Position numbers and translations under genes: made by a program. Below are positions 11,049 through 56,520 of a stretch of DNA of 64,000 nt, one piece after another (within the stretch, counting starts at the first letter, position 1; the number at the start of each line of letters is the position of its first letter). The DNA is from Rhodopila sp. (GTDB taxonomy: Bacteria; Pseudomonadota; Alphaproteobacteria; Acetobacterales; Acetobacteraceae). The stretch lies in assembly GCA_965276975.1 (NCBI GenBank), contig CBDIBR010000009.1:53938-117937 (forward strand), given 5' to 3'. Under the pieces are notes generated by a model that worked only from the letters and a program-made list of their open reading frames with translations, did not search any database and was not told where the DNA came from.

Positions 11049-12497
11049 TTGATCCGCGTCCTGGCTGTCGCCTCGGAAATCTTCCCGGTCGTGAAGACGG
11101 GTGGATTGGCCGACGTCACCGGCGCATTGCCGCTGGCGCTTCATGCCGCCGGCGCCCAAACTGTCACGCTGGTGCCAGGTTATCCGGCGGTGCTGGCCGC
11201 GCTGACCGACGTCGTCGCGGTGCATCGCTTCGCCGACCTGTTTGGCGGTCCCGCAGTGATGTGCCGCGGCAGGACCGGGTCGCTCGACCTGCTGGTGATC
11301 GATGCACCGCATTTGTATGGGCGTGCCGGTAATCCTTATCTGGGACCGGATGGACAGGAATGGTTCGACAACGGCCTTCGGTTCGCGGGTCTGGGCGCGG
11401 CGGCCGCGGCGTTGGCCACTGGCGCCGTGCCCGGGATGAGCTTCGACATCCTGCATGCGCATGACTGGCAGGCGGCGATGGCTGTGGTTTATCTGCATTT
11501 TCATGACGGACCGCGGCCCGGTACGGTGCTTGCAATCCACAACCTGGCATTCCAGGGACGCTACGCCGCCACACTGTTCCCCCGCCTGGGCTTGCCTGCG
11601 TCTGCTTTTAGCGTTGACGGTGTGGAATTCCATGGCGACGTCAGCTTCTTGAAAGGCGGTCTGGCGTACGCCGACCGGATCACGACGGTGTCGCCGAGCT
11701 ATGCACGGGAAATCACCGATCTGGCGAACGGGATGGGTCTGGACGGCTTGTTGCGCCATCGGTCAGGTGTGCTGTCGGGCATCTTGAACGGCATCGATAC
11801 CGCGACATGGGATCCCAGCACGGACAGCCTGATCCCTGCCCGGTTCGGCCGCGGCAGGTCAGGCCGGCGTGCCGCCAACAAGCTGGCGCTGCAAAAGCGC
11901 ATGGGTCTGCAAGCGGCCCCTGATGCGCTGCTGATCGGCGTGGTAAGCCGGCTGACCTCGCAGAAGGGGTTGGATATGGTCCTGGACCAGCTTGGCGGTC
12001 TGGTGGCGGACGGCATGCAGCTCGCCCTGCTGGGTTCCGGCGATGCGGACCTGGAGCGCGCCTTCGTCGCCGCGGCCGAACGGCACCAGGGGGCGGTCGG
12101 TTGTATCCTTGGGTACGATGAAGCGCTCGCGCATCTGATACAGGCCGGCAGCGACGCGCTGCTGGTGCCGTCCCGCTTCGAGCCTTGCGGGCTTACCCAA
12201 CTCTGCGCGCTGCGCTATGGCGCCATCCCGGTGGTGTCACGGGTCGGCGGCCTGGCCGATAGCGTGATTGATGCGAATGAGGCCGCCTTGGCCGCGGGCG
12301 TTGCCACCGGGCTGCAATTCTGGCCAGCAACATCCCAGGCCCTGGCCAGCGCCCTGCGCAGGCTGCTGGGGATCTGGCGCGACCGGCCGGTCTGGGCGCG
12401 CATGCAGCGCAACGCGATGGCCGCGGACGTTTCCTGGCGAGCCTCGGCCCAGCGTTATGTCGAACTCTATGGGTCGTTGATGGCGGCACGGTCTTGA
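11049..12497 (+). CDS. glgA: Glycogen synthase
   Basis: KTGGLADV, HAHDWQ and PSRFEPCGLTQL; TTG start. Confidence 0.96.
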   Translation: MIRVLAVASEIFPVVKTGGLADVTGALPLALHAAGAQTVTLVPGYPAVLAALTDVVAVHRFADLFGGPAVMCRGRTGSLDLLVIDAPHLYGRAGNPYLGPDGQEWFDNGLRFAGLGAAAAALATGAVPGMSFDILHAHDWQAAMAVVYLHFHDGPRPGTVLAIHNLAFQGRYAATLFPRLGLPASAFSVDGVEFHGDVSFLKGGLAYADRITTVSPSYAREITDLANGMGLDGLLRHRSGVLSGILNGIDTATWDPSTDSLIPARFGRGRSGRRAANKLALQKRMGLQAAPDALLIGVVSRLTSQKGLDMVLDQLGGLVADGMQLALLGSGDADLERAFVAAAERHQGAVGCILGYDEALAHLIQAGSDALLVPSRFEPCGLTQLCALRYGAIPVVSRVGGLADSVIDANEAALAAGVATGLQFWPATSQALASALRRLLGIWRDRPVWARMQRNAMAADVSWRASAQRYVELYGSLMAARS

Positions 12498-15400
12498 GCC
12501 GGATCAGCGTGGGGGTCGCTGACACCCTGGGCGTCAGCGTCGTGGCGGACGGCATCAACGTCGCGGTTCATGCGCCCGATGCCGATGCCGTCGCCCTCTG
12601 TCTGTTTGATGCCGATGACAGGGAGACCGGCCGCTTTCGGCTACCGACGCGGACCGGCGCGGTTTTGCACGGCCACATCGCCGATGTTTCACCCGGCACG
12701 CGCTACGGCCTGCGGGCCTATGGCCCATGGGCGCCGAACAACGGTCATCGGTTCAACCCGAACAAGCTGTTGATGGATCCATGGGCAACCGCCATCGACC
12801 GGCCGTTCCGCCTGCATCCGCTGCTGTTCGACCGGGATGGCCCGCGCGCAGAGGACACCGCCGGGCTGATGCCAAAGGCGTTCGTCAACAGCCCGATCGA
12901 TCAACCGGTCACCGACCGTCCGGCTTTCGAGTGGCACCGTCAGGTTATCTTTGAGCTGCATGTCCGCGGCTTCAGCATGACCCACCCTGACGTTCCGCCC
13001 CTCCTTCGGGGGACGTTCGCCGGCCTGGGTCATCCGGCGAGCATCCGCCACCTGACCCGCCTGGGCGTCACCGCCGTGGAGCTGATGCCGAGCGCCGCGT
13101 GGATCGATGAGCGGCATCTTCCGGCGCTGAAGCTGTCTGACTATTGGGGGTACAATCCGATCGCGTTCCTGGCGCCAGACCCGAGGCTGGCGCCAGGTAG
13201 CTGGGCGGAGGTTCGCGCCGCGGTCGATGCGCTGCACGCGGCCGACATTCGGGTCATCCTCGACGTGGTGCTCAATCACTCGGGTGAAAGTGACGAGCTT
13301 GGCCCCACGGTTTCGATGCGTGGTCTGGACAACCGTGGTTACTATCGCCTGGCCGACGACAAATCGCGCTACGTGAATGATGCGGGCTGCGGCAACATCC
13401 TGGCGATGGACCGGCCCGCCGTGGTCCGCCTGGGGATGGGCGCCTTGCGGGCCTGGGCGCGGTTCGGCGGCGTGGACGGCTTCAGGCTGGACCTGGCTGC
13501 CACGCTGGGGCGCCGCGCCAACGGCTTTGACGCGGATGCCCCGTTCTTCGTGGCGGTGGAGCAGGATCCGGTGTTGTCGCGCTGTGCGATGATCGCCGAA
13601 CCCTGGGATATCGGTCCGGGCGGCTATCAGCTTGGCGCATTTCCCGCGCGCTGGGGTGAGTGGAACGACCGGTATCGTGATGCGGTCCGTCGCTTTTGGC
13701 GCCGCGACGCCGGTGCCTTAGGTGCCTTCACCGCCGCCTTCGCCGGTTCGGCCGACGTGTTTCCGCAGCGGCCGTTGTCGCGGAGCATCAATTACATCAC
13801 CGCTCATGACGGCTTCACCCTCGCCGACTGTGTTTCCTTCGAGCGCAAGCACAATCAGGCAAATGGTGAGGATAACCGCGATGGCGCCGATGAAAACCAC
13901 TCCTGGAACAACGGCGCGGAAGGTGCGTCCTCCGAGGCGTCGGTGCTGGCGGCGCGGACGCGCGATGTCCAGGCGTTGCTGGCGACGCTGCTGCTGTCAC
14001 GCGGCACACCGATGCTGTCGATGGGCGACGAACTCGGCCGCACGCAGTGTGGCAACAACAACGCCTATGCGCAGGACAATGCTGGTTCATGGGTGGATTG
14101 GGCCAACGCCGACGATCAGCTGATCGACTACACGGCAACGCTGATCAGATTGCGCCGCTCCCTGTGGCGGTTGTTCGGCGACCGTGCGCTGCGCGGCCCG
14201 CCGGCCGCGGGTGAGGAGCTAGCGGATGTGACATGGCAGGCGGCGGACGGGCGTGTGATGACCGAGGCGGATTGGGCGCGCGACAGCAACAGAACCTTGA
14301 TCGCCGTGCTTTACGCAGCGGGCGCGCGAGCAGCGCTGATCTTTCATGCTGATGCGGCGGCCATGGAGATTGTTCTGCCGCCGCCGCGGTCGGGGCATGA
14401 TTGGCGTCGGGTGCCGGATGGTTCGGCCGCACGCGACTGGCTGACGATCGAGGCACGATCGGTGGCGGTCTTTCGTGAGGAAGCGCGAGACGGCAGCACC
14501 GCCACGCTCGTGCATGCGACGACGCGCCAGTCGTCGGGCGGCCATTGGTCAGACCACGAGTCGTCAGGCGGCCAGTCGTCGGGCGGTGGTGCCGGCGGGG
14601 TGACAGACGCCGATCTTGACCGCCTGGCGGAATTGGCCGGCATCGATCCGATCTGGTGGGACGTGGCCGGCGGCTACCACAAGGTGAGCACAGAAACAAA
14701 ACTGTCTTTATTGGCTGCGATGCGCCTGCCGGCCATCACGCGAGGCGATCTGAACGAGAGCCTGGCGCGTCTCGCACGAGTCCCCGCGCTGCCACCTGTG
14801 CTGATCGCTCGGACGCAACAGACGATCTGTTTCAAGCCGGGTCGACCGCGCCCGGCGTGGATCACGTTGCTTCGCGAGGACGGCAGCCTGGACCGCTTCA
14901 ACGTGGACGATGCCGGGCTAGTCCTGCCGCCACAGCCCATCGGCCGGCACCGGATCCTGAACGAGGACAGACCAGAGCAAGTCTGCCACCTGACCGTCGC
15001 GCCGGAGACCTGCTTCCTGCCGGCGCCGCTGGTTGCCGGCGAGCGTCGTTTCGGCATTGCCGCGCATCTGTATGCATTGCGATCCGAGGGCGACCAGGGC
15101 ATTGGCGACTTTACCACGCTTGCCCGGTTCGCCGCCGAGGCGGGGCGCGTCGGCGCGTCCATGATCGGCCTCAACCCGCTCCACGCGCTGTTTCCCCATG
15201 ACCGAAGCCGAGCCAGCCCTTACCAACCTTCCGATCGGCGCTTTTTGGACCCGATCTATATCGATGTTGCCCGGTTCCCTGGTGGGTCCGACGTCCGTTC
15301 GTCATCCGGTTCGGTGGACTACAGATCCGTCTGGGACAATAAACGCGCAGTTCTGCGCAAGGCATTCGGAACTGGTGGCGATGATGACATTTCCCCGGAG

Positions 15401-16582
15401 CTGCTCCGCTTTGCCATCTTCGAGACGATCGCGGAAGAACTGCGGTCTTCAGATTGGCAGCGCTGGCCGGCTGACCTGCGCCACCCGCTTGGGCCGGGTG
15501 TCGCGGCGTTTGCCGCACAGCATCGGCAGGCCATTCAGTTTCAGGCTTTCCTGCAACGGGTCGCCGACCAGCAACTTCGCGAAGCCGCCGCTGTTGCCAA
15601 GTGGAACGGGCTGTCGTTCGGCCTGTATCGCGATCTGGCGGTCGGTTCCGCGCCGGACGGTGCCGAAGCCTGGTCGGCACAGGATCTTCTGATGTCGGGT
15701 GTTTCTGTCGGGGCGCCGCCTGATCCGTTCTCAGCCGAGGGGCAGATCTGGTGCCTGCCGCCGCCGAACCCGCGCACCATGCATCGTGACGGCTACGCGG
15801 CGTTCAACGAACTGCTGGTCGCGAACATGCGCCACGCCGGTGCGTTACGGATCGACCATGTCATGGGTCTGCGCCGGCTTTTCGTGGTTCCGGAGGGCGC
15901 GCCTGGCATGGATGGCGCCTACGTCAGCTATCCGCTGGCAGACCTGCTCGCGCAGGTCGCGTTGGAAAGCCAGCGGGCGCGGTGTCTGGTGGTCGGCGAG
16001 GATCTGGGAACCGTTCCCGCGGGCATGGCGGAGACTTTGGCTGCCTCCGGCGTGCTGTCCTATAGCGTGCTCTGGTTCCAGCAAGACAACGGCCGCACCC
16101 GGCCGCCCGAGGCGTGGCGACGCCTGGCGGCGGCCTGTGTGTCTACGCACGACCTGGCGACATTGCGGGGTTGGTGGGAGGGCGCGGACATCATCGAGAA
16201 GCAGGGTCTGAAGCTGCTGATCGATCCTGGCGCGGAACAGCTGCGGCTAGACGAGAAATGCGCCTTGATCGCGCTGCTTCGGCAGCAAGACCTGCTGGCC
16301 GACGATGTCGATCCGCGGCGGCCGATGCCGCCCTGCTTCGCCGCGGCGGTCCATGCGTTCATTTCGGCCACCCCGGCGCTGCTCGCCCTGGTTCAGGCCG
16401 ACGATCTGGCGGGCGAGACGGTCGCGGTGAACCTGCCCGGCACCGATAGGGAACGACCCAACTGGCGGCGCCGCCTTGATGTTGATGTCTCAGAGCTCTG
16501 CGGAACGCCCCTTGCCCGGGCCATTCTGGGTGCATTTCGATCGCGCAGGGGCGGTCGGGTGGTATCCGCATCCCCAGGCTGA
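12494..16582 (+). CDS. glgX: Fused glycogen debranching enzyme GlgX (GH13) and 4-alpha-glucanotransferase MalQ (GH77)
   Basis: N-half: YWGYNP, DVVLNH, VDGFRLDLA, MIAEPWD, NYITAHDGFTL. C-half: SPYQPSDRRF, LRIDHVMG, VGEDLGTVP, STHD, VNLPGT. The halves are joined by a Ser/Gly repeat linker. Confidence 0.92.
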   Translation: MSRISVGVADTLGVSVVADGINVAVHAPDADAVALCLFDADDRETGRFRLPTRTGAVLHGHIADVSPGTRYGLRAYGPWAPNNGHRFNPNKLLMDPWATAIDRPFRLHPLLFDRDGPRAEDTAGLMPKAFVNSPIDQPVTDRPAFEWHRQVIFELHVRGFSMTHPDVPPLLRGTFAGLGHPASIRHLTRLGVTAVELMPSAAWIDERHLPALKLSDYWGYNPIAFLAPDPRLAPGSWAEVRAAVDALHAADIRVILDVVLNHSGESDELGPTVSMRGLDNRGYYRLADDKSRYVNDAGCGNILAMDRPAVVRLGMGALRAWARFGGVDGFRLDLAATLGRRANGFDADAPFFVAVEQDPVLSRCAMIAEPWDIGPGGYQLGAFPARWGEWNDRYRDAVRRFWRRDAGALGAFTAAFAGSADVFPQRPLSRSINYITAHDGFTLADCVSFERKHNQANGEDNRDGADENHSWNNGAEGASSEASVLAARTRDVQALLATLLLSRGTPMLSMGDELGRTQCGNNNAYAQDNAGSWVDWANADDQLIDYTATLIRLRRSLWRLFGDRALRGPPAAGEELADVTWQAADGRVMTEADWARDSNRTLIAVLYAAGARAALIFHADAAAMEIVLPPPRSGHDWRRVPDGSAARDWLTIEARSVAVFREEARDGSTATLVHATTRQSSGGHWSDHESSGGQSSGGGAGGVTDADLDRLAELAGIDPIWWDVAGGYHKVSTETKLSLLAAMRLPAITRGDLNESLARLARVPALPPVLIARTQQTICFKPGRPRPAWITLLREDGSLDRFNVDDAGLVLPPQPIGRHRILNEDRPEQVCHLTVAPETCFLPAPLVAGERRFGIAAHLYALRSEGDQGIGDFTTLARFAAEAGRVGASMIGLNPLHALFPHDRSRASPYQPSDRRFLDPIYIDVARFPGGSDVRSSSGSVDYRSVWDNKRAVLRKAFGTGGDDDISPELLRFAIFETIAEELRSSDWQRWPADLRHPLGPGVAAFAAQHRQAIQFQAFLQRVADQQLREAAAVAKWNGLSFGLYRDLAVGSAPDGAEAWSAQDLLMSGVSVGAPPDPFSAEGQIWCLPPPNPRTMHRDGYAAFNELLVANMRHAGALRIDHVMGLRRLFVVPEGAPGMDGAYVSYPLADLLAQVALESQRARCLVVGEDLGTVPAGMAETLAASGVLSYSVLWFQQDNGRTRPPEAWRRLAAACVSTHDLATLRGWWEGADIIEKQGLKLLIDPGAEQLRLDEKCALIALLRQQDLLADDVDPRRPMPPCFAAAVHAFISATPALLALVQADDLAGETVAVNLPGTDRERPNWRRRLDVDVSELCGTPLARAILGAFRSRRGGRVVSASPG

Positions 16583-16724
16583 CCGGCCGACGCAGGGTTT
16601 GGGTTCAGTCCTGATGCAGCGGTTGGCCCGATGCAGCGGTTGCCTGACGTGGCGTTGATTCCGCGCATCTGTGTTCATAGGTATGCCCCATGCATACAAA
16701 GACGGTTGGCGAGCGTTCGACATC

Positions 16725-17096
16725 ATGAGTGATCTATTCGCGCCCGATGGTGGCTGGCGGGTTCGTATTCTGGACCTGTCGGCGGACACCAAGGACAATG
16801 TCACCGAGGAAGTCCCCGGCTTCGACACGCTGATGCACGCCAACGCCTTCGCGCGCCGGTACGTGCGCGATTCGGTCGAGCGATGCCGGGTCCCGGGCAT
16901 GTCGTCCAAGGATGTGCTTGAAGCATGGTTCGCCTTTGGTGAAGACGCGGTGGTCGCCGATGCGGCCGAGGGTGGCTGGAAAAGTGCCACCGAACTGGGT
17001 GACTTCGTTGATGGTCTCGCAAGCCGGGAAGAGCGTGATTGGCGTTCGCTTGACCCGCGGCGAGAGGACCTCGACCTCGATGAGGACGATGCGTGA
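16725..17096 (+). CDS. Hypothetical acidic protein
   Basis: Coding-like 123-aa ORF whose stop overlaps the GTG start of the next gene. Confidence 0.7.
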   Translation: MSDLFAPDGGWRVRILDLSADTKDNVTEEVPGFDTLMHANAFARRYVRDSVERCRVPGMSSKDVLEAWFAFGEDAVVADAAEGGWKSATELGDFVDGLASREERDWRSLDPRREDLDLDEDDA

Positions 17097-18526
17097 TTCG
17101 CGTGCGGTTCGCGCCGGTGCTGGCGGGCAGCGTGTTCGTCAGCAGCGCTCGGATTGCCCTGGCCAACGACTTGTTTGCTCGGCGAAACAATGGCGAGATG
17201 CTGCTTCGACTGGATGACTTAGGCCGCGATCGCCTCGGGTTGACGCGATCACACCCTAAATCCGGTTGCTTGAGCGGGCGATTGGCGTCCGGGGTTGATC
17301 CAACGTCAGACGATCGCGCTGTAGACACCAGGCGAGCCGACCCGGTTCCTATCGAGCAGATCGTGCAGGATCTGCGCTGGTTGGGTATCGAGTGGCAAGC
17401 GTCCTTCCGCCAATCCGAGCGATTGGAGCTGTACCAAAACGCGATCGAGCGCCTGAAGCGAGACAAGCGCCTGTATCCCTGCTTTGAGTCGGAGGAGGAG
17501 CTGAAAGCCAAACAGGCGTTCCGCCGCAGGCACAACCAGCCGACGATCTATGACCGCGGTATGCTGTCGCTGACTGAAAAGCAGCGTCGGGATGCCGAAG
17601 CAGGCGGCAAATCGGCGCACTGGCGGTTCAAGTTGCCTGACCGATCGGTGGCATGGGACGATCTGGTTCTGGGACCACGAAGTGCGGCTCTGTCGGCTGT
17701 GTCCGACCCGGTTCTGGTGCGCGCTGACGGCCAACCCACGCCCCTGCTCGCCGGCGTGGTGGACGACGTCGAGTACGGCACCACCCATATCATCCGCGGC
17801 GACGACAGTGCCGGCAACACCGCTGTGCAGATCGCGTTGTTCGACGTCCTTGGCGGCGGGCAGGTTCGCTTCGGCCACCTGCCTGGCTTGCGCAGCGGCG
17901 GACCGGCGAGATCGGGCGGACGGCGCGCCGAGGACCCGGCGATACGGGGTCTACGCAAGGACGGCGTCGAGCCCGGAGCGATCGTTGCCTGCATGACGGG
18001 CCTGGCGGCTGGCAGGATGCTAGCATTGGACGACCTCGCGAAGCAGTTTGAGATCGCCAGCATCGCGGCGTGCCGCTTCGACATCACCCGCCTACTCGCC
18101 GTTAACCGGCGGCTGCTGAGCGAGCTTGATTTTCCGGCGGTGGCCGACCGCCTGCCGGAAGGAGCCACCGAGCGCTTCTGGCAGGCGATCAGGGGCCATG
18201 TTGAGCTGTTAAAGGATGCGCGTGATTGGTGGGATGTCGTGGCTGGGACGATCAGACATCCTGTGCTCGAAGGCCAGCGGGACCTGTTGCTGCGTGCCGA
18301 GGCACTGCTGCCACCTGAACCTTGGGATGATGCCGTATGGACCGGCTGGATCCGCGCTGTCGAGACTTCCACCGGACGAAGCGGCGACGCCGTTGTCGCG
18401 CCGCTTCGCCTCGCGCTGACCGGCGAGAGCAGCGGCCCGGATCTGGCGCGATTGCTGCCGCTCATCGGCCGCGAGCGGGCTTCGAAGCGGCTCATCGTTG
18501 CCGCCGCTGATACCAATCCGTGTTGA
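17093..18526 (+). CDS. Glutamate--tRNA ligase paralogue with degenerate HIGH/KMSKS motifs and an in-frame repeat insertion
   Basis: RVRFAP, DLRWLGIEW, LYPCFESEEEL, SDPVLVRADG, VVDD, HIIRG and PLRLALTG identify the GluRS fold. The HIGH position reads VFVSS and the KMSKS position reads RSGGR. Confidence 0.85.
   Translation: MIRVRFAPVLAGSVFVSSARIALANDLFARRNNGEMLLRLDDLGRDRLGLTRSHPKSGCLSGRLASGVDPTSDDRAVDTRRADPVPIEQIVQDLRWLGIEWQASFRQSERLELYQNAIERLKRDKRLYPCFESEEELKAKQAFRRRHNQPTIYDRGMLSLTEKQRRDAEAGGKSAHWRFKLPDRSVAWDDLVLGPRSAALSAVSDPVLVRADGQPTPLLAGVVDDVEYGTTHIIRGDDSAGNTAVQIALFDVLGGGQVRFGHLPGLRSGGPARSGGRRAEDPAIRGLRKDGVEPGAIVACMTGLAAGRMLALDDLAKQFEIASIAACRFDITRLLAVNRRLLSELDFPAVADRLPEGATERFWQAIRGHVELLKDARDWWDVVAGTIRHPVLEGQRDLLLRAEALLPPEPWDDAVWTGWIRAVETSTGRSGDAVVAPLRLALTGESSGPDLARLLPLIGRERASKRLIVAAADTNPC
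17221..17324. repeat. Family A palindromic repeat, copy inside the GluRS-like CDS
   Basis: Terminal inverted repeat CGCGATCG (17225-17232) / CGATCGCG (17311-17318); homologous to 2581-2680 and 47875-47959. Confidence 0.85.
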
Positions 18527-18551
18527 AAATGACCCTCCAAGGAAGCAAGAG

Positions 18552-18656
18552 CAGGGCGCTGCCCTGGACCCGCTCAAGGCTGAGCCTTGAGAATCCCCTC
18601 ATTTAACAGAAGGTTTCCAAAGGCTAGCCTTTGGCGGGGCTTGGGGCAGAGCCCCA
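18552..18656. repeat. Inverted pair of REP-like units (REPIN/BIME-like)
   Basis: CAGGGCGCTGCCCTGGACCCGCTCAAGGCTGAGCCTTGAGAATCCC and, inverted, TGGGGCTCTGCCCCAAGCCCCGCCAAAGGCTAGCCTTTGGAAACC. Each unit has two hairpins, and the pair sits between convergent genes. Confidence 0.8.
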
Positions 18657-21005
18657 ATCTTGCTTGCCTGATCGGTCATCCGCTCGAATGGCCGCCCACA
18701 CCCGCGCCGGGGTAGCGGGCATGTCGAAGTGCCTTATACCCGTTGCCGCAAGGGCATTATTGATGGCGTTCATCGCCGCACCCAGCGCGCCAACCGTGCC
18801 GGCCTCACCGACCCCTTTGGCGCCCAGCGGGTTCACCGCGGTCGGCACTTCCCGGGTGGTCAGGCGAAAGTCGGGATACTCGGCGGCCCGCGGCATCTGA
18901 TAGTCCATGAACGACGCGGTCAGCATTTGCCCTGACTCGGGGTCGTGAATGATTGCCTCGCCGAGTGCCTGACCGATGCCCTGGACCACGCCACCGTGGA
19001 TCTGGCCCGCCACGATCATCGGGTTCAGCACCCGCCCAAGTTCTTCAACAGCGCTGTAGCGAACGATCTCGGTCACACCTGTTTCCGGATCGATCTCGAC
19101 CTCGCAGATGTGCGTCCCGTTGGGAAAGGTGACCGCGGTCGGGGTGAATTCACCGGACTCCACCAGTTCGCCGGCTTCGCCGGGGAGAACATGCGCCGGG
19201 TCATGAGCGGCCTTGGCCACATCGGCGAGCGTGACCGAACGGTCGGTGCCGGCGATGGCGAAGTGACCGCGGGTGAATTCCACGTCCACGACCGCGGCTT
19301 CCAGCAACTCGGACGCGATCCGGCGGGCTTTCTCGATCACCTTGTCGACCGCCAGCGTCACCGCCGACCCGCCGATGCACAACGCACCCGAACCGCCGTT
19401 GCCCTTGCCGCTGGGCAGAAGGTCGGTGTCGCCGCCTTCCCAACGCACGCGCTCCTGGTCGACCTCGAACCGATCGGCCACGAGCTGGGTAAACGTCGTC
19501 TCCAGCCCCTGCCCGACCGACATCGAGCCAGAGCGCAGGATCAGGCTGCCGTCCTCCGCGAGGCGCAGCGTGGCGTAGTCTTTCGCCGGACGCAGGAACG
19601 GGCCACCCGCGACCTCGATGCAATTGCACAGGCCGATGCCGCGCAGTCTGCCGTTTTCCGCGGCCTGCGCGCGGCGTTGCTCAAAGGTGTCGAAGTCGGC
19701 CAGCGCCGCCGCCTCGCGCATGTTGCCCTCGAACTCGCCGCAGTCGTAGGTGAAGGTCAACGCGGTCTTGTAGGGCATCGCCTCGGGGGGGATCAGGTTG
19801 CGGCGCCGGAGTTCGTATGGGTTGATGCCGATTTCGCGGGCCGCGACATCGATCAGGCGTTCAATCGCATAAGTGGCTTCGGGTCGGCCGGCGCCGCGAT
19901 ACGCCGCTGTCGGCACCGTGTGGGTCAGTACGCCACAGACCTGGGCGGAAATCAGAGGGATCATGTAGACGCCAGCGATGCCGCCGATGTTGCCAACGCC
20001 CCAGCCGGAGCGGCCGGACACGTAGGCACCGAGATTGACGTCCCATCGCAGCTTGAGCGCGGTGAACCTGCCTTGCGGATCCAGCCCCAGAGAGGCGGTG
20101 ACCCGCATCTCCCGCGCCTGTTCGTCCGTGAGAAAGCCTTCAGTTCGATCCGAGATCCATCGCACCGGCCGGTCGAGGCGACGTGAGGCCCAGGCAACGA
20201 GCACCGATTCCAGGTGGACGCCCGATTTCATTCCGAACGATCCGCCGACATCGCCCGGCAGCACGCGGATCTCATCCGGCGCGATCCGAAAGTTGCCGCT
20301 GGCGATCCCGTTGCGAAGTGCGAACGGTGACTGGTGCGATGCATGCAACTCGATCCGTCCGTCGGCGGCTATGCATGCCCAAGCCCCGCGCGGCTCCAGC
20401 GAATTGGCGGTGACGCGAGAGACAGAAAAATCCAGCGTCGTCACATGCGCCGATCCGGCAAGCGCCTTCGCGGTGCCGTCCGCGTCACCGCGTTTCCACA
20501 GGAAGCCAATGTTGTCCGGCACATCGTCCCACACCCTGGGCGCGCCGGGCTGCACCGCCCCGATGGGTTCAGTCACCACCGGCAGGCCCTCATATTCGAC
20601 AACGACGGCTTCGGCCGCTTCCAGGCCGGCGCCTCTTGAGTTGGCAACCACCAGGGCGACGGGTTCACCAACGAAACGCACACGATCGGTGGCCAGCAGG
20701 TCGCGGTCGGTCTTGGGCGCGGAACCGCCATCCGGACGTGGAAAGCCGATGCCGCCCGGAATGGGAGCGACATCGGTCAGGTCGCTGCCGGTGTAGACGG
20801 CGATAACCCCGGCAACGGCCAGAGCGGGCGCGGCGTCGATATGGGCGATCCGCGCGTGGGCGTAGGGCGAGCGAACGAAGATCGCCACCGCCATGCCGTC
20901 CGGCGCGGCATCGGCGGCGTAGTTACCCTGCCCGGTGAGTAGCCGAAGGTCCTCGCGCCGCCTGATCGATTTTGCCTGAATCGATTTTGCCTGGATGGTT
21001 GCCAC
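18624..21005 (-). CDS. Xanthine dehydrogenase family molybdopterin-binding large subunit (CoxL/CutL-like)
   Basis: RREDLRLLTG, VGGSFGMK, AYRGAGRPEA, QIHGGVVQGIGQAL, GAKGVGEAG and HFDMPATP. Confidence 0.92.
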   Translation of the reverse strand: MATIQAKSIQAKSIRRREDLRLLTGQGNYAADAAPDGMAVAIFVRSPYAHARIAHIDAAPALAVAGVIAVYTGSDLTDVAPIPGGIGFPRPDGGSAPKTDRDLLATDRVRFVGEPVALVVANSRGAGLEAAEAVVVEYEGLPVVTEPIGAVQPGAPRVWDDVPDNIGFLWKRGDADGTAKALAGSAHVTTLDFSVSRVTANSLEPRGAWACIAADGRIELHASHQSPFALRNGIASGNFRIAPDEIRVLPGDVGGSFGMKSGVHLESVLVAWASRRLDRPVRWISDRTEGFLTDEQAREMRVTASLGLDPQGRFTALKLRWDVNLGAYVSGRSGWGVGNIGGIAGVYMIPLISAQVCGVLTHTVPTAAYRGAGRPEATYAIERLIDVAAREIGINPYELRRRNLIPPEAMPYKTALTFTYDCGEFEGNMREAAALADFDTFEQRRAQAAENGRLRGIGLCNCIEVAGGPFLRPAKDYATLRLAEDGSLILRSGSMSVGQGLETTFTQLVADRFEVDQERVRWEGGDTDLLPSGKGNGGSGALCIGGSAVTLAVDKVIEKARRIASELLEAAVVDVEFTRGHFAIAGTDRSVTLADVAKAAHDPAHVLPGEAGELVESGEFTPTAVTFPNGTHICEVEIDPETGVTEIVRYSAVEELGRVLNPMIVAGQIHGGVVQGIGQALGEAIIHDPESGQMLTASFMDYQMPRAAEYPDFRLTTREVPTAVNPLGAKGVGEAGTVGALGAAMNAINNALAATGIRHFDMPATPARVWAAIRADDRSGKQDWGSAPSPAKG

Positions 21006-47876: not shown

Positions 47877-47962
47877 GCGCGCTCGCTTCAGGGTGAAGCG
47901 GTCACGTCCTGTTCGAGAAGGCGATCGACGTCCGAAGTTGGTCCAACCTCGGACGATCGTCA
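47875..47962. repeat. Family A palindromic repeat, intergenic copy
   Basis: 47875-47910 matches 17222-17257 at 26/36 and 47915-47959 matches 17272-17316 at 36/45. Internal hairpins are CGCTTCA-GGG-TGAAGCG and GTCCGAAGTTG-GTC-CAACCTCGGAC. Confidence 0.85.
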
Positions 47963-55683: not shown

Positions 55684-56520
55684 ATGATCGTCACACGCTT
55701 CGCACCCAGTCCGACGGGCGCCCTGCACCTGGGCCATGCTTTCTCGGCGTATGTCGCCTGGCGCCAGGCGCGGCGCGCGGGCGGGCGGTTTCTGCTGCGG
55801 CTGGAGGATATCGATCCTGGCCGTTGTCGCCCCGAGTATGCCGCGGCGGTGCAGACCGACCTGGCTTGGCTGGGTCTGGACTGGGACGGACCCGTGCGGG
55901 TGCAGTCTGAGCATCTGCCCACGTACCAGTCGGTACTCGACGGGCTGGCGGAACGCGGCCTGGTGTATCCGTGCTTCTGTACCCGCGCCGACATCGCGCG
56001 GGAGATCGCAGCCTCGGCCGCGGCGCCGCATGGGCCGGACGGGGCGCCGCTATATCCGGGCACCTGCCGCCGTCTGTCGCGGGCGGAGCGGGCTGACCGG
56101 ATCGGCGGTGGCGAGCGGTTCGCGCTGCGGCTGGATATGGCGGCCGCGGTTCAACCGGGCTTGACCTATGACGAGGTCGATGAAGGTCGCATTGCCTGCC
56201 AACCCGAGCGGTTTGGCGACGCCGTGTTGGCCCGCAAGGACGCACCGGCGAGCTATCATCTGTGCGTCACGCACGACGATGCGTCGCAAGGCGTGACGCT
56301 GATCACCCGCGGGGCCGACCTCAGGCCGGCGACCGATTTGCACCGGCTGCTGCAAGCGCTGATGGGGTGGCCGACGCCCGCTTACGCGCACCACAGGCTG
56401 CTGACCGATGCCGCCGGCCGGCGGCTGGCAAAGCGGGACCGGGCAACGAACCTGGCGTCGCTCCGCGCCGAGGGGGTCTCGGCGCGGGCGATCATCCAGC
56501 GGTTCGATCAATCCCAGTAG
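55684..56520 (+). CDS. gluQ: tRNA glutamyl-Q(34) synthetase GluQRS
   Basis: RFAPSPTGALHLGH, YPCFCTR, ITRGADL and RLAKR; lacks the anticodon-binding domain. Confidence 0.93.
   Translation: MIVTRFAPSPTGALHLGHAFSAYVAWRQARRAGGRFLLRLEDIDPGRCRPEYAAAVQTDLAWLGLDWDGPVRVQSEHLPTYQSVLDGLAERGLVYPCFCTRADIAREIAASAAAPHGPDGAPLYPGTCRRLSRAERADRIGGGERFALRLDMAAAVQPGLTYDEVDEGRIACQPERFGDAVLARKDAPASYHLCVTHDDASQGVTLITRGADLRPATDLHRLLQALMGWPTPAYAHHRLLTDAAGRRLAKRDRATNLASLRAEGVSARAIIQRFDQSQ

Follow-up and report, generated by a model that had tools for sequence, protein, structure and literature searches.

A full-length GluRS2-type protein lacking the catalytic motifs of glutamyl-tRNA synthetases is conserved in a Rhodopila-like genus of Acetobacteraceae

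Background

Pseudo-enzymes built on aminoacyl-tRNA synthetase folds are already known, HisZ and GluQRS among them, and HisZ, a catalytically inactive paralogue of HisRS, serves as the regulatory subunit of ATP-phosphoribosyltransferase. The gene considered here, which encodes a 477-amino-acid (aa) protein related to the second glutamyl-tRNA synthetase (GluRS2) of proteobacteria, lies in a stretch of 64,000 nucleotides from Rhodopila sp. (GenBank assembly GCA_965276975.1, contig CBDIBR010000009.1, positions 53,938 to 117,937 of the forward strand), referred to below as the window. Like HisZ, the window protein is a synthetase paralogue maintained by selection after the loss of its aminoacylation motifs; unlike HisZ, a class II protein with a known partner and role and no anticodon-binding function, it keeps a full tRNA-binding architecture. 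GluQRS, also called YadB (TIGR03838; PDB 1NZJ and 4A91), is likewise derived from GluRS, but it is truncated, has no anticodon-binding domain and retains HIGH- and KMSKS-like motifs together with activity, whereas the window protein is full-length and motif-less.

Among the closest described systems is the proteobacterial GluRS2 of the HphiGN class, the tRNA(Gln)-specific synthetase of the indirect route to Gln-tRNA(Gln), known from H. pylori and A. ferrooxidans (PMC3927822, PMC2777447). The window protein is orthologous to the GluRS2-type proteins of Acetobacteraceae and other Alphaproteobacteria (36-51% identity), with which it shares the GATEAFW..WW and PPEPWD segments, a five-domain fold and an operon with a small upstream gene. 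Unlike proteobacterial GluRS2, it lacks HVGN, DDTD, PLY, RGEDH and KLSKR and coexists with GlnRS, and for both reasons aminoacylation by this protein is very unlikely. A different GluRS2, of the T. maritima/acidobacterial type, is reported to be non-functional alone and to charge neither tRNA(Glu) nor tRNA(Gln) (PMC3927822); it keeps HphiGG and arose by another route than the window gene, and the T. maritima protein, to go by the title of PDB entry 3AL0, works within a transamidosome. No description was found in the literature of a motif-less GluRS2 clade maintained by selection, or of a link to GlnRS in Acetobacteraceae.

A GluRS2 orthologue without catalytic motifs

The gene and the parts of it that matter for this comparison are as follows.

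17093..18526, plus strand: motif-less GluRS2-type gene, 477 aa, full GluRS fold (open reading frame (ORF); Pfam and NCBIfam matches; matches to PDB GluRS structures; AlphaFold2 (AF2) model)
17108..17146, plus strand: degenerate HIGH region FAPVLAGSVFVSS, residues 6-18 (alignments; FAPSPTGxLHVGN in intact relatives)
17726..17821, plus strand: second half of the Rossmann domain, with DGQPTPLLAGVVDD (Glu-binding Tyr lost) and IRGDDSAGNT (RGEDH lost) (alignment)
17912..17926, plus strand: KMSKS-equivalent loop SGGRR, residues 274-278 (alignments; KLSKR in intact relatives)
18296..18493, plus strand: anticodon-binding domain, including the invariant LRLALTGE..GP (Pfam Anticodon_2, residues 402-467; invariant columns; domain dN/dS 0.13, see below)

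The reading frame opens with GTG and is intact, and codon-position GC content outside a short insert described below is normal for a coding gene. The product matches Pfam families tRNA-synt_1c (PF00749, 125.7 bits) and Anticodon_2 (PF19269, 34.3 bits) and solved GluRS structures in PDB at E 1e-39 and below, while its AF2 model (mean predicted local distance difference test score (pLDDT) 76.9, above 90 in core blocks) resembles full-length GluRS structures with a template modelling (TM) score of about 0.6. The Pfam matches and the model together describe a five-domain GluRS fold with its anticodon-binding domain; a GluRS scaffold and an anticodon-binding domain had been claimed in the original prediction, which a model made from the sequence alone. 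The match to the bacterial GluRS family TIGR00464 (gltX_bact), at 209.2 bits, does not reach the cut-off of 289.95 and is 81 bits short of it, and the protein does not belong to GluQRS either (140.6 bits on TIGR03838 against a cut-off of 276.7).

With the canonical GluRS (GluRS1) of its own genome the protein shares 27% identity; the values are higher against the second GluRS in other families of Alphaproteobacteria (36-41%) and highest against the one in other Acetobacteraceae (46-51%). The gene count and phylogeny proposed with the original prediction gave a canonical GluRS1 elsewhere in the genome and placed the window protein inside the Acetobacteraceae GluRS2 clade, the family clade having a support of 100 in the Shimodaira-Hasegawa approximate likelihood ratio test (SH-aLRT). 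The gene also has the operon arrangement of that lineage, a 123-aa gene whose stop overlaps its start. By sequence, then, it is the Acetobacteraceae GluRS2-type orthologue, a statement about orthology and not about activity. A recent duplication of the housekeeping gltX gene is ruled out by the low identity to GluRS1 and by the position of the gene in a family-wide GluRS2 operon.

Each catalytic signature that is intact in relatives is altered. The HIGH position reads VFVS in the window protein and LFVS, LYVS or LLVS in its genus, with no His and no match to the HIGH signature; the PTG of the first loop (P-loop) is also lost (VLAG). Alignment to intact relatives further shows DDT(D) changed to DDL, the PLY tyrosine, which we take from T. 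thermophilus GluRS to be the glutamate-binding residue, replaced in PTP, and IRGDDSAGNT (residues 234-243) standing where RGEDH is expected. The KMSKS position, SGGRR in the window protein and PGGRR or PGGRK in the genus, does not fit the KMSKS signature, and the loop is disordered in the AF2 model. In the amino-acid pocket, R5, A7, D41/D42, R235 and D238 are still invariant. The replaced HIGH region and the change of RGEDH to RGDDS had been predicted and are found at the residues given; the predicted change of KLSKR to RSGGR is right as to the loss and one residue off in register, the aligned position being SGGRR.

The genome in which this gene lies is represented by an assembly of 5.3 Mb in 10 contigs, with the window on a contig of 144.7 kb. 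It encodes GluRS1 (465 aa, 486.5 bits on TIGR00464), GlnRS (702 bits on TIGR00440), GatB and GluQRS, as well as two genes each for tRNA(Gln) and tRNA(Glu); no AsnRS was found above cut-off in the genome. Because GluRS1 and GlnRS are both present, Glu-tRNA(Glu) and Gln-tRNA(Gln) can each be made directly, and from this gene content GatCAB would still be required for Asn-tRNA(Asn).

Conservation of the motif-less form within the genus

Among 24 other species genomes of the Rhodopila/Acidisphaera-like genus, 19 have full-length or near-full-length orthologues, and all 19 have a degenerate HIGH region (LFVS/LYVS/LLVS), DDL, PTP, RGEDN or RGEDS, and GGRR, GGRK or LSRK. The derived motifs common to the genus are LFVSG, DDL, PTP, RGEDN and PGGRR, and the same derived pattern is found in 120/120 of the nearest homologues (57-64% identity) in a collection of 5.8 billion proteins. 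Motif loss private to this genome is ruled out by these shared changes. Intact HVGN, DDTD, PLY, RGEDH and KLSKR are found in 49 Acetobacteraceae genomes in which GlnRS was not found and in 8 other families. In two members of the genus the GlnRS match itself is in two pieces (G012:C5:171899-173424, with 2 TGA codons, and G009:C154:113481-115321); the two assemblies are 82% and 91% complete, and either an assembly error or a broken glnS gene is possible.

Selection was measured as the ratio of nonsynonymous to synonymous substitution rates (dN/dS), by the Nei-Gojobori method (NG86) on codon alignments, with pooled values taken from five independent pairs. For the closest species pair, in which dS is unsaturated, the GluRS2-type gene has a dN of 0.059, a dS of 0.42 and a dN/dS of 0.14, and GluRS1 has 0.079; the pooled values for the genus are 0.16 for the GluRS2-type gene and 0.106 for GluRS1. 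Within the genus the GluRS2-type ratio spans 0.14-0.3, in intact GluRS2 pairs of other genera 0.09-0.35, and in degenerate GluRS2 copies of other genera 0.35-0.55. The two genomes nearest to that of the window by GluRS1 (G022 and G005) are 73-80% complete, and neither has the whole locus, which is absent or truncated at the edge of a contig. The window copy is not a pseudogene by the usual marks, since its reading frame is intact, its genus has a ratio of 0.16 and its sole lesion is an in-frame repeat insertion. With orthologues that are degenerate and yet have dN/dS far below 1, the predicted pseudo-enzyme gains support over the alternative of intact orthologues and a neutrally evolving copy.

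Pooled dN/dS differs between domains:

Rossmann N-terminal part: 0.22
Connective peptide (CP)/acceptor-binding domain: 0.11
Rossmann C-terminal part: 0.18
KMSKS/stem-contact region: 0.28
Anticodon-binding domain: 0.13

This pattern fits a protein whose ATP site is free to drift but whose surfaces in contact with tRNA would be kept. The suggestion that the protein is kept for tRNA binding agrees with the strongest constraint lying on the tRNA-contacting domains, which is not proof of it.

A repeat insertion in the window copy

The window copy carries a feature of its own.

17222..17323, plus strand: in-frame insertion of 102 nucleotides (nt), residues 44-77, consisting of a dispersed repeat of about 96 nt and absent from all orthologues (alignments; nhmmer for the repeat)

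The insertion sits in the catalytic core, directly after the active-site strand LRLDDL, and is absent from 120/120 of the nearest homologues. The repeat has internal hairpins and is present in 171 copies in the genome by nhmmer; comparison of the insert with Rfam gave no match. The insert has no codon periodicity, the remainder of the gene being periodic as normal for coding sequence, and it is disordered in the AF2 model (pLDDT about 27). Further copies of the hairpin-rich repeat lie in the window at 2588-2679 and 47881-47959.

Distribution of GlnRS and of GluRS2 states

The survey covered 121 Acetobacteraceae genomes, almost all sampled as one per genus; 20 of them encode GlnRS and 114 gave a GluRS2-type match. 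Motifs were read in the 30 top-scoring copies, in all copies from GlnRS-positive genomes and in the 20 lowest-scoring copies from GlnRS-negative genomes, with the following outcome.

GlnRS-negative Acetobacteraceae: 49 intact; 1 degenerate (G048); 1 frameshifted (G154)
GlnRS-positive Acetobacteraceae (n=20): 0 intact; 14 degenerate full-length; 2 frameshifted; 4 with no remnant

Besides the copies of the window's genome (G000) and of G023, the 14 degenerate full-length ones comprise 12 from other genera, no two of which are altered in the same way. The frameshifted GlnRS-positive genomes are G126 and G061, and those with no GluRS2 remnant are G062, G142, G144 and G147. In two GlnRS-negative genomes of the family (G113 and G125) there are two intact GluRS2-type copies each. 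In other alphaproteobacterial families, 16/17 GlnRS-positive genomes have no GluRS2-type match and 14/14 GlnRS-negative genomes have one. An earlier description of a complementary distribution of GluRS2 and GlnRS agrees with this class-wide pattern, and co-occurrence of GluRS2 and GlnRS was there reported for Mesorhizobium and epsilonproteobacteria only, with no loss of motifs (PMC3927822). With a single exception, the degenerate copies group into one clade of the gene tree (SH-aLRT 97), to whose formation long-branch attraction could have contributed.

The upstream gene and the neighbourhood

Two other genes of the window bear on this comparison.

16725..17096, plus strand: conserved gene for a 123-aa protein, stop overlapping the GluRS2 start (GTGA); true start codon ATG at 16725
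55684..56520, plus strand: GluQRS gene (context), with HLGH and a Lys-containing RLAKR loop retained

The 123-aa gene stands directly upstream, with 60-88% identity, in 72/80 Acetobacteraceae GluRS2-type loci searched. In 7/8 of the remaining loci the fetched upstream flank was too short to show it, and the other genome, G048, carries the small gene at another chromosomal site, at about 1.90 Mb against 3.47 Mb for the GluRS2-type gene. At the window locus its TGA stop overlaps the GTG start of the GluRS2-type gene, and the ATGA/GTGA overlap of stop and start is conserved, with the small gene preceding intact and apparently dead GluRS2 genes alike. The translational coupling that had been proposed is in this sense both real and ancestral. 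The 123-aa protein has 32 invariant positions and a higher conservation than GluRS2, and it persists in 4/5 genomes without GluRS2, so its function must be independent of GluRS2. It matches no Pfam family, and its neighbours in a protein Atlas are named only "hypothetical". The other families of Alphaproteobacteria that were examined did not show it beside GluRS2. A complex prediction for the window GluRS2-type protein and the 123-aa protein scored 0.00, a value that weighs neither for nor against binding, and a promoter and terminator scan of 16400-18800 gave nothing useful.

The GluQRS gene does keep its motifs, as the original prediction had it. Further upstream, at 12494-16582, is an ORF of 1362 aa that appears by eye to be a fusion of a GlgX-like glycogen debranching enzyme and a MalQ-like 4-alpha-glucanotransferase joined by a Ser/Gly-rich linker.

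Explanations for the retention of a motif-less GluRS2

We consider it probable that the window gene encodes a catalytically dead GluRS2 that became redundant after GlnRS was present and has been kept in the genus as an accessory, probably tRNA-binding, protein. Ancestrally, a GluRS2-type enzyme would have glutamylated tRNA(Gln) for GatCAB, as in relatives. In the GlnRS-bearing lineage it would have become redundant for Gln-tRNA(Gln) and then have lost its ATP- and glutamate-binding residues. From the replaced motifs and the domain pattern we infer that in the Rhodopila-like genus a protein unable to aminoacylate would long have been kept by purifying selection in a non-catalytic accessory role, most probably still binding tRNA, presumably tRNA(Gln), through its acceptor- and anticodon-binding domains, and co-expressed with the conserved small upstream protein.

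Several observations weigh against this reading. The association with GlnRS amounts to only 2-3 phylogenetically independent events, too few contrasts for phylogenetically corrected statistics on GlnRS and motif loss. There are exceptions on both sides, as one complete Acetobacteraceae genome (G048) has a degenerate GluRS2-type gene (G048:C1:3465930-3468040) with no GlnRS found, and a genome of another alphaproteobacterial family (G193) has GlnRS beside a fully intact GluRS2-type gene (G193:C38:9863-14020). The latter gene lies, by eye, between NAD synthetase-like and CysRS-like ORFs. GluRS2 is dispensable within the genus itself: in G016 it is deleted, the upstream gene being present with nothing GluRS-like downstream, in G003 (a 2-contig assembly) it has one frameshift, and in G020 it has three in-frame stops. 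Because the gene is lost or broken in these species, the protein must be accessory, whatever its role. A basic residue is kept at the catalytic Lys position (KLSKR to GGRR or GGRK), with which some weak residual activity may be conceivable. For pairs that include the window's genome, dS is near saturation. Finally, the terminal branch of the window copy, at 0.42 against 0.13-0.23 for its sisters, is about twice as long as theirs, with no comparable excess in GluRS1 distances for this genome. Given the repeat in its core and this faster evolution, the catalytic site of the window copy is clearly not under selection, and the copy could be at the start of decay.

That the gene lost its function with the arrival of GlnRS, leaving the intact reading frames as relics and the window copy in early decay, is a fairly unlikely account of the whole, and a plausible one for the relaxed copies of other genera. 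GlnRS-positive lineages show all stages of loss, from frameshifts (G061, G126, G003) and stops (G020) to deletions (G016, G062, G144, G147), and both the relaxed ratios outside the genus and, in the window copy, the repeat, the lost P-loop PTG and the long terminal branch are in keeping with slow decay. It is set against a ratio within the genus that lies in the range of intact GluRS2 elsewhere, against full-length frames in 19 species and the same derived motifs in 120 metagenomic homologues, and against a constraint that varies by domain where decay would leave it uniformly lax; even on the window branch, a three-taxon estimate made by hand from pairwise values, with dS near saturation, gives a dN/dS of about 0.2. 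Early decay, which the original prediction had offered as a second option, is possible for the window copy itself, given its repeat insertion and faster evolution. More improbable still is a remodelled pocket that would bind charged tRNA, either hydrolysing Glu-tRNA(Gln) (trans-editing) or transferring the glutamyl group without ATP. In vitro, the half-life of Glu-tRNA(Gln) falls to about half in the presence of H. pylori GluRS2 (PMC3241645), and the replacement residues (LFVSG, PTP, EDN, PGGRR) are conserved across the genus and not randomised, around pocket residues that are invariant. Cyclodipeptide synthases offer a precedent, as they have a class-I-like fold without HIGH and KMSKS and use aminoacyl-tRNAs as substrate. 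But GatCAB, which is present, would already clear Glu-tRNA(Gln), the gene has been lost in some species of the genus, and shared ancestry with structural constraint would also explain the conserved replacements.

Hardly credible is a working GluRS with non-canonical motifs, as implied by the annotations of some sources, NCBI included, which name some orthologues "glutamate--tRNA ligase". Those names, the basic residue at the position of the second Lys of KMSKS and a purifying selection as strong as on intact GluRS2 could be cited for it. However, five active-site elements have been replaced together, among them the Glu-binding Tyr and the His of HIGH (by Phe, Tyr or Leu), the TIGR00464 score falls well under the cut-off, the protein accommodates a foreign insert of 34 residues next to the DD strand, constraint is weakest in the KMSKS region, and GluRS1 and GlnRS are already present in the genome. 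A bolder reading makes the motif-less GluRS2 a new kind of ATP-independent tRNA factor, which may bind Glu-tRNA(Gln) or tRNA(Gln) and police or buffer the tRNA(Gln) pool after the takeover by GlnRS, by trans-editing or sequestration, or may use charged tRNA as cyclodipeptide synthases do, with the upstream protein as a possible partner; this is a conjecture that we regard as doubtful.

Implications

Where orthologues bear the label "glutamate--tRNA ligase", two GluRS genes are counted in genomes in which only one can work. The Acetobacteraceae show all the fates of GluRS2 with respect to GlnRS, in that the gene may be intact, dead but conserved, relaxed, frameshifted or deleted, and in one genus the dead form appears to have been stabilised by selection. 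The finding also draws attention to the conserved 123-aa protein that is its operon partner, and it provides a tractable natural system for the role that a class I synthetase scaffold may have without catalysis.

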